Shown here piece after piece: positions 49,322 to 58,082 of a stretch of DNA of 64,000 nt. Position 1 is the first letter of the stretch; every line of letters starts with the position of its first letter. The notes beneath the pieces were generated by a model. That model had not been told where the DNA came from. It ran no database searches and worked only from the letters and a program-made list of their open reading frames with translations. Both the position numbers and the translations under genes were made by a program. This stretch comes from Amphiscolops sp. MND2022 (lineage: Eukaryota): positions 34,412,001-34,476,000 of the forward strand of contig OZ076409.1 in assembly GCA_964187785.1 (NCBI GenBank), read 5' to 3'.

Positions 49322-50664
49322 CAGGGATGTTCAACAATTAATTGCAATTAATTGGTCTGAAGAAAAAACTACCAATGAATCATTGCAAAAAGGTGGCTGT
49401 AAACAGGTCGAATTTTTCTGGTCGAAAGGACAGAGGTCGAACCTTTTGATCGAATTGCAGGGATCGAATGGAATGCGGTCGAATTTTATCGTATTTGTTG
49501 TATGGCTCGGTCGCTTCGCTCCCTTCGCCAAGTAGCAACATTGAGGCATGGCCATATGGCACGTCGCTCCGCTTCGCTCCTGCATAAAAAGCACTAGGGG
49601 TATGTAAACATATCTGACTACGTTATAAAAATTTCGATCCGAGTTGTTTCGATCCCATTCAAAAATTTGGTATGTCGACCTGAGGACTAACTCTGATTTT
49701 CGATCCCGTTCCTTCGACCTACTTCCGCCCACCCATTGCAAAAAATCGACTTTTCCAATGAATAATTGCAATTATTGCAATTATTGGGAAAACAAAAAAA
49801 ATCAGCAGAAAAATCAATTCACATCAATTTTCCTTGTTCAAAACCTTAGAAACTGTATGTATGTTCCACAATTTAGAATTAGCTTTGAGAAAAAGCTGTT
49901 GCTCCAAATGTTCAGGCGTCAAACGCTGTCTCAAATTGGTCAAAGCCAGGCCAGCAACGCTGAAAAATCTCTCCAGCAGATTAGATGTCGGCAGTAAAAA
50001 GTGCAAATCAAAATAATCCGACGATGTTGACACTTTAGCTCTTTTTGAGTATCATCGAAGCAAAATCGTCATCATCAGAGCGAGTCTTAATCTCGGGCTC
50101 GCCTTCAATTTTCTTCAGCCTTGCAAAAGCTATCTTTTCACACAAAGCTAAATCATTCTCCCGTTGTTCCAGTGTTTTTACAACACCTGATTCGAAATGT
50201 CTGCTTTTGAAGACACGCGCATTAGAACCAAGGTATTTGTTCTCCTTATCTATATTTTTGAATTGCAAACCCAATCTAGCCAAGCGAAAACGTTTTGCGC
50301 CTTCTTGTTTATAAGGCCAAGTGATGGATCCAATAAAGTAGACTGTCCATTCTCTGGATTTTCCTCAAATTGTTTGGATGCATCTGGGTGTTGAGATATA
50401 TGCATACGCAAGTTGGTCCACCGAGAACCCTCCTGTCTCTTCCCGCATTGACATTTCCACAAGCCCTTCCCATCTGCATCCGGCATTTTCTGGAAAAAAT
50501 TGAGGCAAACTTCCTCAGTTATTCGTTTTGACATGACGACCTGAAAAATTGGCAAAAATTGGTAACCTGCCAATGATTATTGCTGAAAATAATTCTTACC
50601 AATCAATCATTGTTATCAAAATATTGCAATCATTGCAATTTCAATTATTGATTGAACATCCCTG
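49322..50664 (-). mobile_element. Internally deleted hAT DNA transposon
   Basis: TIRs CAGGGATGTTCAA / TTGAACATCCCTG and 8-bp TSD CAGATGAC (49314-49321, 50665-50672). BED-like N-terminus WKCQCG..WTNL..HI.QH and hAT dimerisation motif PTSNLLERFFSVAG..LT..RQRL.P..LEQ.LFL. Confidence 0.9.
49391..49734. mobile_element. Mutator-like MITE nested in the hAT element
   Basis: Imperfect TIRs GGTGG...AGGTCGAA / TTCGACCT...CCACC, flanked by an approximately 9-bp direct repeat ATTGCAAAA. Confidence 0.55.
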
Positions 50665-51051: not shown

Positions 51052-51674
51052 TAACTTTCGAGTAATGTTTTTGACCCTTTGATCCCATGGAAAATGACTA
51101 CATAGACGGCCAAAAAGGATCCTATGACCCCGTGCAAAAGGACTCCATGGAAAAACTTAAGGATATATTTGGAAAATAGGTGACAAAATCACGAGGAAAT
51201 CAAGGTCTTTGAGTTAAAGCAAAATAATGTGGGGTCATATTCGGTGTATGCTTTCTTGACTTCACCGTTGCAAAGACCAGCTCCCATTACGATCGCTTCG
51301 CGATCTCCGTTCCCGCTAGGTCTTTGCTCCTGTTCGACCTCACTTGGCAAGATGGGAACATAAGCGCCCCCAAGGGGCCGCGGGGCAGGCGAGGAAATGG
51401 AGACCTATCCGAGGCACGTTTCATACTGATAATTCATATGTCTATTTCTTCTTTTGTCCAAATTATCGTATTTTTAGACCCTTTCATATCAATTCTCTTG
51501 ATCTTTTCATCTCTGATGACTGTGCCATTATTAGAAATTTTTATCTCCGGTACAAATATTATTTAATGTACTGAAACTGCCGTATGCGATCCTGCCTAAT
51601 ATGTATGCATCCACTATATTGTAACTGTTCTTGAATTGTTCTGTTTCATACATTTATATATATCGTGTGTGCGA

Positions 51675-52542
51675 TGTCATCTGGCAGGTACTTGAACCTT
51701 ATGGGTGGTGGCTCATCATTTGATCGTTCCCGCCTTGCGAGGCGGATGGCAAACCTTGACACCCCCGCTTTGCCGAAAGCCGAGCAAGGTGTTATTGCGT
51801 CTTTTTCTTACCCAGTCCCTCCGTGAAAATGTCAGCGCAATTGTCATCACTTGCAATAAACTTCAGATCAATCGACTGATTCTTCACAGTCTCCCGCACA
51901 TAGGCCATCCGAGTTGCAAAGTGTTTCGCCTTTGCGCTGCTGTCATCTCTGGTTACTAATGCTTGGCACGATTGACTGTCCGTGAACAAAGTCGTCGCTA
52001 TGGATTCTCCAAGAGTGTCCAGAATCCCCCGCAAAGCGCCGCTTCCTTTACGGCTTCGCTCAAGGCATGAAGTTCTGCCTCAGTGGTTGAAGTCGCTACA
52101 CACGTTTGTCGTCTAGCAGCCCACGATAGTGCCCCACTACCCACGTTGAAGCAGAAACCAGTGATGCTTCGTCTATCGTCCTTGCAGCTGGCATAGTCTG
52201 AATCCGTGTATCCATTTAGGCCTGTATCATCGCACTTCATGAAAGTGATGCCCACGTCAGCTGTACCTCTGAGGTAGCGTAACACGTGCTTCGCTGCTTG
52301 CCAGTGAGCAAATCCAGGGTTGCCAAGAAATCGAGAAAGTAGGTGGGCCGGGAATGCCAGGTCAGGTCGAGTGGACAGTGAGAGGTAGGCAATGCTACCC
52401 ACCAGGCCTCTGTAATCATGTCTCAACATTTGCTGTTGCTCATCTGATCCGTCGTCTGGCATCTGATCCTTCGTCAGCTCCAGCTTGTCTGCGAGTGGTG
52501 TTGAAGCTGCCTTGCACTCGCCCATACCGTGTTTGCGTATAT
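51675..52542 (-). mobile_element. Ty1/copia LTR retrotransposon 3' fragment (RT C-terminus, RNase H, PPT, 3' LTR)
   Basis: YRGLVGSIAYLSLSTRPDLAF, AAKHVLRYLRGT, GYTDSDYA..DDRRSITG, TSTTEAE, LFTDSQS, KAKHF, DNCADIFT. PPT AAAGCGGGGG, then an LTR TGTCA...TGACA at 51675-51761. Confidence 0.92.
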
Positions 52543-52579
52543 ATACTGATAATTCAAAAATCAACACACCCCAAACGTC

Positions 52580-52920
52580 GGGGTAGGAACGTTTCGTCAC
52601 CAGCCATTTGGGCCACAAAAATTTCAGCCCATTTCGCCCAAATGTCTCGTAGACTAAATTGCCAAATATGTTGACATACCCCTAGTGCTCTAAATGCAGG
52701 AGCGAAGCGAAGCAGAGCGACGTGCCATAGGGCCATGCCTCAATGTTGCTACTTGGCGAAGGGAGCGAAGAGACAGAGCCATACAACAAATCTGCTAACC
52801 TCTTCAAATATATCGGTTAATTGATCAATTTGATCACCCCATTTGGTCGACTCCTTTTTCGCCCATGTGACCGACTCTATTTTGTCGGCCAAATGACTGG
52901 TGACGAAATGTCCCTGACCC
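52580..52920. mobile_element. MITE with about 42-bp imperfect TIRs
   Basis: GGGGTAGGAACGTTTCGTCACCAGCCATTTGG matches the reverse complement of CCAAATGACTGGTGACGAAATGTCCCTGACCC. Confidence 0.7.
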
Positions 52921-53588
52921 TATCAAATCAGTATGGTAGGCTTTACGGCTTGGCCAAGGTTCACAAGCAGAATGTTCCCCTCAGACCAGTCCTCTCTCTT
53001 CCAGGCAGCCACTACGAGTCGCTGAATAAATGGCTGGCACACTTTTTTGTTCACCTCGAGGGAGCCAACATTGAGACCAACACTACCATCACCCGATCAC
53101 CATCATAATAACTGAAGTTGAATTGACTGGAGATGAGCAGTTGGTGGCGCTTGACGTCACTAGCCTGTACACTAACGTTCCCGTCGCAGAAGCGATCGAG
53201 ATTGCGGTACAGAAGGTCTATTTGCAAAATGAGCCACCTCCGCTGCAAAAAGAAGTTTTCAAGAAGTTGCTTCAGCTAGCAGTCGCCAACGTACATTTCA
53301 AATGTGGTGCAAAATGGTACGTAAAAACAGATGGTTTGGCCATGGGTGCATCTCTAGCTGTCATCCTCTCTAACCTATGGATGAAGAAGTTGGAATTCAT
53401 CCTCTCCAGCTCTTGTCCTGATCCATCCCGGCTAAATGAAACCGAAAATTGCGGTGAATGTAACCATCGGGTTAGGAACTACGATCGAGGATTTCGGTGC
53501 GATTCTTGCAACCGCTGGTACCACATTCAATGTCAAGGGATCAACGAGAGTGGGTACGACGACCTTGAAGACGAAGAATGGTTATGTC

Positions 53589-55666
53589 TCCGCAAGCCGA
53601 AGCGATGCTTCTAAGTGATGCAGAAAATGCCTTCAACAGTCTAAATCGTAAACTAGCGCTGAAAAACAATGAAATAATTTGCCCGTCTCTCAATAACGCG
53701 CTTAGAAACTCCTACGAATCGCCTTCTCTTTTGTTTGTAAACGGCAAAACGATACTATCACAGGAAAGAACAACACAAAGCGACCCACTCGCAATGGCGA
53801 TGTACGGAGTTGCGCTGCTACCACTCATCAATTTGGTAAAGGATGACATGGTCACCCAAAAGTGGTACGCCGAGGATGGAATCGCTGTAGGATCACTGGA
53901 ATCACTCGTCGCTTTGCATCAGAAGTTACAAAAACATGGCCCAGCATTCGGCTATAAGCTGACGAAATGCAACCTTATCGTCAAAGAAAGTTCTCTAGAA
54001 AAAGCCAAGAAGTCGTTCGAATCGATTGACATAGAGATTGTTCCCGGACACCGAGTGTTAGGTTCGACGATAGGTTCCAAAGCAGCGTGCGACAAATTCA
54101 GAGAAAAAGTCACCACTTAATACCAGCATCAAGTCGAAAAACTTGCCATCCACGCCCGAAAATCGCCGCAAAACAAATATCACGCTTTCACACAAGGTAT
54201 ACAGAACAAACTCTCGTTTCTCTCCCGAACCACACCCGACATGGAGCTTTTCCTACAAGAAACAGAAAAGACGATCTCGGAAAAACTGCTGCCTGCGCTC
54301 ACTGGAAAGACCACCCACACAGAAGAGCATCGTCTGCTCTTCTCACTCCCTTTGAAAAATGGCGGTCTCAATATCCTCTCACCCGATGACCGCGCTGGGG
54401 ACTACCCACGATCGGTCGCTTTGAGTGAATGCCCGAACGGAATGGAACCCCTTGCCGCGGAAAATTCGCTGTACAAAATCCTCCGCGAATTCAAGAAACA
54501 GAAATTACAAAACAACAACACGAAAATTGAAAAACTAGAAGAAGTCCTAACCGAGGGCGAACTATATGCCATGAAGCTGTCCTCCGAGAAAAGAGCCTCT
54601 AGCTGGTTGAACGCGCTTCCTCTGCAGAAATATGGTTTCGCCCTATCCAAATCAGAATTCAGAGACGGCTTAGCTCTCCGATACGGATGGGAACCTAAAA
54701 ATCCCCCTATTTCGTGTGCTTGCGGTGAACCTTTTGCAATGTATCACACTTTACACTGTGCAAAAGGCGGATATACCCATCTGCGGCACAATGAAATTCG
54801 CGACACTTTCGCTAAGCTCTTAGGAGACGTCTGCAACGATGTTGAAATCGAACCGAAACTTTAGCCGTTAGAAGGCGAGACCTTCGATAATAAATCAACG
54901 AGCACTGAAGATGAAGCTAGATTAGACATCAAAGCAAACGGACTTTTCGATTCAAGATTCTGCCGAACCTTCTTCGATGTCAAAATCTTCAACCCATTCG
55001 CCAACTCCTGTCCGAAACAAATTAAAGAAGCATACAAACACCACGAAGCTTCAAAGAAACGCAAATACGAGCAACGTACCATAAATGTCGAAAATAGCTC
55101 CTTCAGCCCACTCGTGTTTGCGACTACAGGAGGAGCCGGACCGTCTGCGTCGAAAATCATCACAAGGCTCGCGGTCAAGCTCAGCGACAAAACTTCTGAG
55201 CCTTACGCTGATGTTGTAAGTTTTATCAGAACGAAGGTTAGTTTTGCACTCTTGAGGAGTTCAATTTTGTGTATTAGAGGAGATCTCTTAAACGTACGGT
55301 CATTCAGACCGAGTCCTCTATGAGCGAAGAGGGAAGGCTCTCAAGCTCTCAGTAATTCTGTAACGAGCAAATTAATTTGTGATATGCTGTTTTCTAGACG
55401 AGCATATTTTTTGCGATTTGGTGTTTTGTTTTATAAATTAGTCCTCTGCTTGCCGATGTTTTCACATTTATTTTCACGGGCCGTTACTGACACTGCAAGG
55501 AGGCTCTGCAGCTTGCAGCGTTTCGACACCTTCCACACCATTTTGACAAGCCCCCTCTGTAACCTGGGCCATACATACGTAGACCATTACCTTTTTGGTT
55601 TCCAGGCGCACGGTCCATTTATAAAAGAAATGATGAAAAGTTGAAATAATAAGTAAATTTAAAAAA
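53589..55666 (+). mobile_element. CRE-like non-LTR retrotransposon (RT, CCHC knuckle, restriction-like endonuclease), 5'-truncated
   Basis: DAENAFNSLNR, TTQSDPLAMAMY, WYAED (YADD position), CACG...HTLHC, RHNEIRD, RLDIKANG..FFDVKIFNP, KKRKY, PLVFATTGG. A-tail at 55661-55668. TSD AAGAATGGTTATGTC at 53574-53588 and 55667-55681. Confidence 0.93.
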
Positions 55667-56242
55667 AAGAATGGTTATGTCGTTCTTGTAGCACTGAAAG
55701 GGCCCGCTTATTCCAAAGATACGTTGACGACATTCTGCTGGTGACTAGGCATCCTCCTGAAGAGTTGCTCAACGTTGTTAACCGACTTCATCCCAACCTC
55801 AAGTTTACCATTGAGACACTCAACGTTTCTCTAGGATTGGCATTTTTAGACATGAGGTTATCCCGTTCAGGTAACCGTCTGTCAACTCAGTGGTACCAAA
55901 AGCCCAAGACACTGGTGTTACAATGAATTTCAGGAGTTATGCGCCAGTCGAGTACGAGAAGAATATCATTAGAGGCGCAGTGCACCGTGTTTTAAACGTT
56001 ACATCCAGTTAGGAGTCATTTCATCAGGGCATTCGCCAGAATCAATCAATCTGGAAACAGAATCAGTTTCCCGAGAAATGGTCTTCTGCAATAGCTCGCA
56101 GAACGCTAAACACCATCTTAGCTCCTGATAAGCTGAAAGACAAACCCCCACCTCTACAACGCGAAACCCACAGAAAACGAACATCTTTCCTCGTCCAATA
56201 CCGAGGCACCATATCAGATCAGTTAGTTCAAAGATTAAGAAA

Positions 56243-56653
56243 GTGGCAGATATCGACACCTTCAATACAACCAGAAAGTTGAGAACGTGTTTACCAAGTT
56301 TGAAAGGCCCAATTTCGACGTTCATGAGATCCAAAGTGGTCTACCAAATGACCTCTATTCGATGTCATTCTACCTATGTCAGCCAACCTATCCGACATTT
56401 GACGACGAGGATCACGGAACATGAAGAGGGAATCAACACTACAGTCGCTCAGCATTTATCGCAATGCGCTGACTCAAAAGGTGATTGGAAGATCCTGGAT
56501 TCCTGTCTCAGCGAATATAAATTGCTCACGTTGGAGGCTTTTTTTACAAAACTGAAACCGAAGGTGAAGGCACGCGAGGAGTACAGACAGAGGGAGCTAT
56601 CTCTCAGAATCTCGTCCTGGGTATCCAGGCTTTTGTATCACGGTGCTTTCTAG
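56243..56653 (+). pseudogene. GIY-YIG endonuclease domain of the Penelope-like element
   Basis: SKVVYQMTSIRCHSTYVSQPIRHLTTRITEH...VAQHL..C...KILD....KLLTLEAFF.KLKP. Confidence 0.85.
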
Positions 56654-56726
56654 CCCTAAAATTATTTATATGTTTGGCTGCTTCTCTAATGTCTATATTT
56701 CTCATTTTTATACATTTTGGTTTCTG

Positions 56727-56768
56727 TCAGTTCTGATGATGAATGTACACTCAAAAACGTTCATCTGA
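56727..56768 (+). ncRNA. Degenerate minimal type I hammerhead ribozyme in the Penelope 3' region
   Basis: TCAGTT-CTGATGA-TGAATGTACACTC-AAAA-CGTTC-ATCTGA. The CUGAUGA core is intact, stems I and II each have one mismatch, and GAAA has become AAAA. Confidence 0.6.
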
Positions 56769-58082
56769 TTTTGTTTTTTATTTTTTTTTTCTAAATCAGT
56801 ATGGGGTCATAGGGTCAAAATCTTGTGGTCATATAGTCATTTGACAAGGGGTTAAAAGCCATGGGGTCATGGGGTCAAAGGGTTATATGATATGCCTCAT
56901 GGTCATAAGAGTGGAAATCCGGTGGTCAGAATAATTTGACATGGGGTTAAAAGCCATGGCGTCATTAGGGCAAAAGGTTATATGATATTCCTCATAACTT
57001 TCCCCATCGCATTTCTTCATCAGAGTACCAATTCTGGGTCAGATGGTTGGAAGTGACAAGCCTGATTGAAGGAATTGACATACCATACATTGCCATGACT
57101 ACAGGGTCACCCTGAGTAGTGCCACTTGGAAGAGAAGGGTTTTAGTTCCGCTGTATAGTTTTGATATCATGGAGTAAGAGTAATTCGAAGCGATTTTTGT
57201 GAACTTGGGTGGGAAGTTTTTAGAATTTTCTTTCAACAAACTTACTATACGAGTCTACAAACTTGTCCTGAAATTCTTCAAACTTGACCTAAAAGTCTAC
57301 AAACTTTTAAAAGAGTTTAATACATTTGTTGTATGGCTTGTTTGCTTCGCTCCGTTTCGCTCCTGCATTTAGGGCACTAGGGGTATGAGAGGATAGTTAC
57401 CTACATTATCTTGAAAAGTTCGCCGCTGTGTTGAACACAAGTTCAACAAGTTTAATTGTTTCCTATTTCAATTTATGACACTTTGTCATTCAAAAAACCA
57501 CCCAAACAACTTTGAGCAAATATTCAAACGTGCCCTAAAAGTCAACATTTGTCGGAAAATTGATGACCGTTTTGTAGAAAAAAATCCACGAATTTGTTCT
57601 CACTTTTCTCCAACCTTACTTCTTCGAACTTGTTTTCTACCAACTTACCAACTACCATTGGCGGTGGATGTTTGGATCGAAACAATTTGTGCAAATATGT
57701 AATTTGTCACTGAGTTCAAATTAAAATGGTCGAAGAAAATGAGATCGAATCAATATGTTCAAAAACCTAGCGTTTTCAAATAACAATGATTTTGGCTGCG
57801 ATAAAGCCCCATTTACTCTAGTGCCCCGCGGCCCGTTGGGACCTCTTATGTTTCCATCTTGCTAAGCCAGGTCAAACAGGAGCAAAAACCTAACGTGAAC
57901 GGAGATCGAGAAGCATTGGTAGTGGGAGCTGGTCTTAGCGACTAAAAGGGCGAGGTTGTATACATCGTATTTGACCCCGTATTAGGGGGGAAAAAGTACA
58001 GAAATAACTTTAAATAAACACTTTTGAACGCTTTGCAGGTGCCAAAAACAAGCAGAAACACATCGATCTCAAAACTTTCGAT

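Follow-up and report, generated by a model that had tools for sequence, protein, structure and literature searches.

A PHD finger at a fixed site inside the reverse transcriptase palm of a clade of Penelope-like elements, and its possible role in chromatin docking

What is a PHD zinc finger, a domain best known as a histone-mark reader, doing inside the catalytic palm of a reverse transcriptase (RT)? The question is raised by a Penelope-like element (PLE) in a 64-kb stretch of the genome of Amphiscolops sp. MND2022, hereafter the window (C1:34412001-34476000 of the host assembly G000, 1.07 Gb). Positions are given in window numbering, and L001, L006 and similar names denote loci fetched from G000. 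A first-pass annotation had proposed that a complete C4HC3 PHD finger sits between RT motif B' and the catalytic YVDD of motif C, that a nested CRE-like retroelement later split the frame, and that the finger may steer insertion. We read the locus as a dead, CRE-interrupted copy from a PHD-bearing PLE clade whose finger would dock the element's particle on target chromatin; on the sequence evidence, this reading as a whole seems to us about evenly poised between right and wrong. It builds on what was observed of the architecture, of a single clade, of conservation and selection between families, and of recent mobility.

The insertion in the window copy is bounded by an exact 15-bp target-site duplication (Table 1), the match being lost at 16 bp. 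When 53589-55681 was excised by a script, a single frame ran from motif A to motif E and took in B', a C4HC3 PHD finger and YVDD, as had been proposed. Measured between the D of DGLAMG and the Y of YVDD, the spacer is 99 aa, against 34 aa in PHD-less sisters (a difference of 65 aa). It agrees with the earlier figure of about 73 aa, which takes the end of the B' helix as its starting point. The 5' half alone matched the Pfam PHD model (PF00628) at 27.3 bits, above the cut-off of 24 bits; RVT_1 gave a weak match to the window copy, below its cut-off. The annotation had described the last two Cys and YVDD as hidden by the insert, which is true of the eighth Cys and YVDD but not of the seventh Cys, since this one belongs to the duplication and so occurs at either side of the insert. 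The window's PLE family is found without the CRE insert at four further places in G000, at ~91% DNA identity, and in the sister copy L001 the B'-PHD-YVDD segment is uninterrupted.

The nested element (2,078 bp) is 5'-truncated, has an A-rich tail and is a member of a multi-copy non-long-terminal-repeat (non-LTR) family, for which 39 candidates were scored in G000, the best other copies being 95-97% identical. Upstream of the position of the window junction, 10 of 11 other loci of this family continue with CRE sequence, the remaining locus being a still shorter truncated copy. The boundary between PLE and CRE is real because longer copies of the CRE family extend 5' with their own sequence. For the same reason, we rejected the possibility that this PHD is part of the CRE insert. 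The CRE label is tentative and comes from the RT, CCHC and restriction-like endonuclease motifs, which are those of the CRE clade; Pfam, run on the window, named none of these motifs in the nested element. The insertion is younger than its host PLE copy.

The PLE copy itself is dead. Joining 52921-53588 to 55682-56653, as had been suggested, did not yield one open frame on translation: the frame is broken near 53100, 55900 and 56230 and also contains stops, and therefore the copy cannot be counted as live. Its endonuclease is degenerate and its hammerhead-like core is changed. Compared with L001, it has evolved about neutrally (RT nonsynonymous rate [dN] 0.06 and synonymous rate [dS] 0.07; PHD dN 0.12 and dS 0.07). 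Death and near-neutrality would suit a finger that entered an already dead copy in a single event, or one created artificially when two pieces were joined. That explanation is refuted by uninterrupted RT-PHD-RT-endonuclease open reading frames (ORFs) in many families and in other assemblies, and we give it practically no weight.

To what extent is the finger a property of a lineage? With the RT-PHD half as the query against G000, 150 matches were scored among 684 candidates, and 80 regions were fetched around scored matches. The segment from B' to YxDD was readable in 56 of them, the rest being frameshifted or motif-less. The spacers were bimodal: 40 of the 56 measured 98-127 aa, with the finger or remnants of it, and 16 measured exactly 34 aa. 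As a control for spacer length, 80 metagenome PLE loci were used, and all 51 readable spacers fell at 34-41 aa. A whole-protein profile that included PHD-less rows retrieved 537 database proteins. Among the best 120 of these, which were parsed for the B'-C spacer, 13 had the PHD (96-122 aa), 103 had 34-36 aa and 4 had low-complexity spacers of 59-72 aa. Uninterrupted copies with the PHD at the same position were thus found not only at L001 but in many families. At least 14 divergent families in G000 bear the finger at this site, their PHD-containing segments being 36-47% identical to the first.

Trees were built by quick IQ-TREE runs with the PHD insert removed and with unlabelled relatives, from 33, 30 and 133 rows. 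In each, the PHD-bearing rows (22, 16 and 23, respectively) lay on one side of a branch with a Shimodaira-Hasegawa-like approximate likelihood ratio test (SH-aLRT) value of 99, which was also obtained with the B' helix taken out of the 133 rows. All 23 members of the PHD clade in the 133-row tree have the finger. When the tree was rooted on distant PLEs, the PHD clade was nested among relatives with 34-aa spacers, although one outgroup row fell inside the ingroup. Because of this nesting, the trees point to a single gain of the PHD in the ancestor of the clade. The B' helix also differs: all 13 PHD-bearing proteins lack a Pro at +7 or +10, against 1 of 107 others. The suggestion of a PLE lineage rather than a one-off was borne out, as the finger is inherited with the RT and conserved and the clade is active.

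The clade extends beyond G000. A profile of the B'-PHD-C segment was run against 1.84 billion representatives, and 72 of the best 150 matches inspected were PLE-RT fragments. Eleven of these shared 90% identity or more with G000 loci that had been fetched, another 16 lay near other long-contig families, and the remaining 45 fell in neither group. Two of the 25 PHD-bearing clusters that were looked up contain a named member, in both cases from Symsagittifera roscoffensis (XP_063722202.1 and XP_063722382.1). XP_063722202.1 stops at B', and the finger is visible in its 90% cluster mates. Since the family of XP_063722202.1 has a best match of 57% in G000, the clade is present in at least two genomes. 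A named PHD-less relative is from Clytia hemisphaerica.

In type, the elements look like Penelope/Poseidon PLEs, judging from their sequences. They share with that group a single ORF with a PLE RT, the DKG motif, a C-terminal GIY-YIG endonuclease with a CCHH motif and no CX2-5CxxC linker finger, 5' truncation, and tandem and inverted copies (PMC8557442). RVT_1 and GIY-YIG were matched by Pfam in relatives. The CCHH motif (CxxC...H...H) is found in the endonuclease of intact relatives and is degenerate in the window copy, and the tandem and inverted copies seen in the clade take the form of pseudo-LTRs. No CX2-5CxxC finger was found between thumb and endonuclease in any of the 7 proteins parsed out of 8 given. 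A candidate for the 3' hammerhead of that group, a CTGATGA-stem-GAAA core, was present in 7 of 8 3' untranslated regions (UTRs); Rfam gave no match for the window and 8 loci, folds of the single strand were not significant, and the L006 stretch was misplaced. The elements differ from Penelope/Poseidon in the spacer, which is 96-127 aa with a PHD rather than 34-41 aa, and in the Pro-less B' helix.

The annotation knew of no PHD inside a retroelement RT core. That did not hold, because the Chlamys PLEs have one: a PHD lies between RT2a and RT3 in three Chlamys families and inside the endonuclease in two (Craig et al. 2021, PMC8557442). The likeness ends at a finger inserted inside a PLE RT core. 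Chlamys elements are green-algal, with an N-terminal endonuclease that has no CCHH, with an insertion-in-fingers domain, and mostly without hammerheads (PMC8557442). Here, in contrast, the finger is at RT4(B')-RT5(C) and is fixed across a radiation, the endonuclease is C-terminal with CCHH rather than N-terminal as in Chlamys and Naiad, and a candidate hammerhead-like core is present. The B'-C finger is a gain independent of that in Chlamys. The supplement of PMC8557442 had no further PHD entry and no acoel entry. In the literature searched, outside of which were Repbase, Dfam, most subscription papers and bioRxiv supplements, neither a PHD at the RT4-RT5 site nor PLEs from the host group were described. 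Therefore, a PHD in a PLE RT was already known, and it is the RT4-RT5 site, the clade and the fixation across a radiation that were not found there.

Next, conservation of the finger was examined. Seven of the zinc ligands are the same in all 14 families, as are a Val of the first loop and the Trp that precedes the His ligand. The eighth ligand is nearly invariant, and the linkers on either side of the finger vary freely in length and sequence. All eight ligands were read by pattern in 24 of 27 representatives and by eye in the remaining 3. A Trp stands two residues before Cys7 in 21 of 24 fingers, at a position where PHD fingers have an aromatic residue. Selection was estimated by the Nei-Gojobori method from 15 families (105 non-independent pairs; one pair left out). 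The proportion of nonsynonymous differences (pN) was 0.43 for the PHD, 0.375 for the RT and 0.60 for the linkers, with a synonymous proportion (pS) of ~0.77, a contrast that is somewhat inflated because protein-guided alignment lowers pN and pS is saturated. For the least saturated pairs, the PHD dN/dS was mostly ~0.17-0.30 (e.g., 0.25/1.03 and 0.33/1.94), and at non-ligand PHD sites of unsaturated pairs dN was 0.32 versus a dS of 0.85. By these estimates, the PHD is under purifying selection between families; the window copy itself, as said, is about neutral relative to its sister.

Intact RT-PHD-RT-endonuclease ORFs of 850-900 aa are present at L006, L010, L011 and L012. The 3' end of L011 is common to 16 matches at 99-100% identity on nine chromosome-scale contigs, mostly 5'-truncated, and L006 copies, a head-to-tail array among them, are 98-99% identical. 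Judged by such copies, the PHD-bearing families are recently mobile, which makes it very likely that an RT with the finger works. L016, a PHD-less family, is just as young. A look-up of RNA for an intact copy listed no holder, which counts neither for nor against the family. The head-to-tail array makes up almost all of contig C1820 (39,181 bp; L006, L093 and L094), with ~14 PHD-bearing PLE units at a period of ~2,743 bp, several of which have intact 853-aa ORFs. A 216-bp piece of L006 coding sequence, located 3' of YVDD, forms a tandem satellite with ~28 units at C1:26601437-26607351 and ~18 units on C533.

Is the finger useful at all, or is it an entrenched passenger in a permissive loop, kept folded only to spare RT stability and without useful binding? 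Four PHD-less relatives (P0374, P0380, P0401 and P0408), which form a separate small PLE clade, carry Pro-/acid-rich low-complexity inserts of 25-38 aa without zinc ligands at the same point, and because such unrelated inserts occupy it, the B'-C loop can be called permissive. The passenger explanation also gains from the non-ligand PHD positions, which are 32% identical between families (pN 0.50), and from the equal activity of PHD-less sisters. However, a clean in-frame deletion would be easy, yet none of the 23 clade members lacks the finger, even though the profile search included PHD-less rows. The surface Trp is invariant, and non-ligand dN stays well below dS in the unsaturated pairs. 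We consider this explanation improbable.

The best matches among solved structures were Pygopus PHDs (E 1e-8; PDB 2xb1 and 3zpv). A solved PLE RT was not found among the structure matches, which were PHDs and short B' matches to other RTs only, and all ESM Atlas matches were under 0.9. The invariant Trp of the finger aligns with the pocket-divider Phe of fly Pygo, and the invariant Val aligns with the Val of EVND. In Pygo, both the pocket divider and the EVND Val are needed for H3K4me binding, and several substitutions of the Trp would preserve the fold (PMC3851687). The pocket-divider Trp was present in 24 of 24 parsed fingers. By the criteria of PMC3241642, the finger is of the methyl-K4 type in its sequence and not of the K4me0 type, which has an acidic cluster before Cys1 and no aromatic divider: the Trp is present, and Asp or Glu stands two residues before Cys1 in only 10 of 24. 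As a separate observation on histones in this genome, very large tandem histone-gene arrays were found on C33, C67, C4:21.12-21.17 Mb and others, with periods of ~3,621 and ~3,633 bp (150 scored of 6,411 candidates).

Pygo PHDs also have a binding face for a protein cofactor, on the side away from the histone pocket (PMC3851687), and PHDs recur as accessory domains in unrelated transposons of the host genome (LINE ORF1 and the N terminus of the CRE family; LINE, long interspersed nuclear element). The finger might, in line with this, recruit a host protein such as a remodeller, repair or silencing factor, or mediate RT oligomerisation, through a non-histone surface. However, the helix and the second loop are poorly conserved outside the core, and the conserved residues are on the side of the histone pocket, so that a protein partner of this kind is a long shot in our estimate.

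Several findings weigh against docking through the histone pocket, beginning with the inflation of the pN/pS contrast noted above. The H3K4me2/3 cage is incomplete, with an aromatic residue two before Cys1 in 3 of 24 fingers and a variable second aromatic, and the complete cage of two to four aromatics with an acidic surface that characterises H3K4me2/3 readers (PMC3241642) was not found. While the Val and Trp of the K4 pocket align with Pygopus, the finger differs from Pygopus in lacking the EVND Asp and the cofactor HD1, in a surface that is often basic, and in a last Cys pair that is often CxC (12 of 24). The Val and Trp also occur in the LINE ORF1 PHD of the host, and because that PHD has both, the two residues may simply have been inherited. 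The fingers span net charges of -9 to +10, with at least +5 in 12 of 25 and an acidic charge in 6 of 25, and basic VEL PHDs bind polyanions, not H3 (PMC9640981).

The same charges bear on another explanation, in which the finger is a nucleic-acid grip of the RT, comparable to the insertion-in-fingers domains of telomerase, that holds element RNA or primer-template and aids priming or processivity, with little to do with histones. The VEL precedent, the many basic fingers, a conserved basic loop before Cys3 and the change of the B' helix along with the insert all speak for it. However, charge is not conserved, the acidic fingers including that of the window's own family, and linker length varies by 30 aa, which is a better fit to a tethered module than to a fixed part of the core. 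We rate such a grip as rather unlikely, though it has to be taken seriously.

The flanks of the insertions were compared for signs of steering, using crude sequence measures on the 2-kb 3' flanks of 20 PHD-bearing insertions (two families), 20 PHD-less insertions (one family) and 20 arbitrary sites. GC content was 0.390, 0.390 and 0.383 and the CpG observed/expected ratio 0.97, 0.97 and 0.91, respectively, with no difference. Between PHD-bearing and PHD-less flanks, the P values were 0.84 for GC, 0.92 for CpG and 0.48 for repeat cover, the longest ORF was alike, and no microsatellite target was found. The repeat content of PHD-bearing flanks was marginally above that of arbitrary sites (P = 0.05). 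The steering proposed in the annotation was thus not seen in these measures, a lack of bias that adds to the points against chromatin docking and is in keeping with a nucleic-acid grip.

With regard to the position of the finger in the palm, the strand before YxDD is kept, and the insert begins at the strand's far end. Given the RT palm fold, this position would put the finger away from the catalytic turn. The description of the finger as next to the active site is correct for the sequence only; the same loop also takes low-complexity inserts.

We then considered where the finger came from. Among the nearest PHD-only matches, 62 of 78 were multi-PHD proteins and 24 of 78 had an NPGP-type motif, as occurs at LINE N termini. 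The LINE ORF1 PHD of G000 matched the finger profile with a probability of 96.5. When 25 PLE fingers were placed in a tree with 50 other PHDs (56 columns), the tree was poorly resolved, with 9 label changes, only 2 of them forced by strong branches. Occasional replacement of the finger may have occurred, although identity in the PHD is correlated with identity in the RT (Spearman 0.42; 0 of 2000 permutations) and for 20 of 25 PLE fingers the best match was another PLE finger. The multi-PHD matches and the LINE ORF1 PHD make a transposon source of the LINE type plausible. The origin from LINE ORF1 put forward in the annotation is plausible in this general form; the PHD tree pointed to no particular donor. 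PHDs of CR1/L2 LINEs have the same finger style (Kapitonov and Jurka 2003 as cited in PMC8557442), but those of LINEs and other transposons, including Gypsy-7a_cRei (PMC9940879), are in ORF1 or outside the RT core, whereas here the finger is in the catalytic domain. In the host genome, a young LINE family with an APE endonuclease and an RT (L081-L085 and L091) has a 263-aa ORF1 that opens with a PHD finger. Longer copies of the CRE-like family (L183 at C13:44784153-44789223, and L184) have a PHD-like C4HC3 finger at the ORF N terminus, and because of this at least three retroelement types in the genome carry PHDs.

Table 1. Features of the interrupted PLE copy, in window numbering
Feature	Position	Strand	Basis
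5' part of the 5'-truncated dead PLE copy: RT as far as B', plus most of the PHD; frame broken near 53100	52937..53588	+	sister-copy match starts here
RT motif A region (SLYTNVP)	53162..53182	+	frame reading; RVT_1 weak, below cut-off
RT motif B' and helix, lacking Pro as is typical of the PHD clade	53330..53395	+	
First seven zinc ligands of the PHD finger, with the Trp that precedes the His ligand	53450..53587	+	Pfam PF00628, 27.3 bits
Left copy of the target-site duplication, 15 bp, holding Cys7	53574..53588	+	
Nested 5'-truncated CRE-like non-LTR element: 3' half of RT, CCHC knuckle, restriction-like endonuclease motifs, A-rich tail	53589..55666	+	ORFs, junctions
Right copy of the target-site duplication, 15 bp	55667..55681	+	
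PHD Cys8 (55687-55689), strand before motif C, catalytic YVDD (55720-55731)	55682..55731	+	
RT motifs D-E (FLD 55843-55851), thumb, Cys-free linker; frame break near 55900, stop	55732..56243	+	
C-terminal GIY-YIG endonuclease, degenerate: first Cys of CCHH and G of YVG changed	56225..56653	+	relatives intact, Pfam PF01541
Hammerhead-like core: CTGATGA, short stem, GAAA changed to AAAA	56733..56757	+	
3' UTR and 3' end of the PLE copy	56654..56790	+	sister-copy match stops about here

The PLE copy lies in a nest of other elements. Its truncated 5' end is adjoined by a 341-bp element resembling a miniature inverted-repeat transposable element (52580-52920), with 41-nt inverted ends; a repeat within this element recurs at 49486-49626 and 57311-57409. 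On the minus strand, ORFs at 51792-52560 indicate an RT and RNase H fragment to which Pfam gave no match and whose motifs suggest that it is Ty1/copia-like. Inverted repeats of 192 nt (51225-51416 and 57793-57984; 76% complementary) flank the entire nest, possibly as the termini of a DNA transposon that is older.

Taken together, the docking reading would run as follows. The ancestor of the clade would have gained a transposon-type PHD once, between the B' helix and the strand leading to YxDD. The finger would be an independent two-zinc module on variable linkers, around which the palm closes normally, and the element would move by ordinary GIY-YIG-primed reverse transcription. The finger would then dock the particle of RT-endonuclease and RNA on target chromatin, its Pygo-like pocket, with the invariant Val and the pocket-divider Trp, taking the H3 tail, and basic fingers contacting nucleosomal DNA. 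The effect of such docking would be more efficient, or biased, insertion into chromatin and not the choice of a sequence. It is also conceivable, although unlikely in our view, that this palm-loop chromatin reader has diversified (acidic or basic, CxxC or CxC), co-resident families aiming at different chromatin states.

Transposons repeatedly carry PHDs, among them LINEs, LTR elements, DNA transposons and Chlamys PLEs, and it has been suggested that these fingers help to target chromatin (PMC8557442, PMC9940879); no study testing that role for transposon PHDs was found in the literature searched. Young sister families with and without the PHD, as near-identical dispersed copies in one genome, offer a natural with/without comparison for steering by the finger, and the question can be tested with insertion maps on chromatin data and a swap of the single loop. 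A whole folded domain can be accommodated in the B'-C loop of a telomerase-related RT, a finding of use for work on RT evolution and for protein design. The clade is an animal PLE radiation named so far only from an acoel. If its finger is indeed a diversified palm-loop reader, PHD and PLE RT would have been fused convergently here and in Chlamys, at two sites, and the clade would provide the first direct case of a retrotransposon RT itself reading chromatin.

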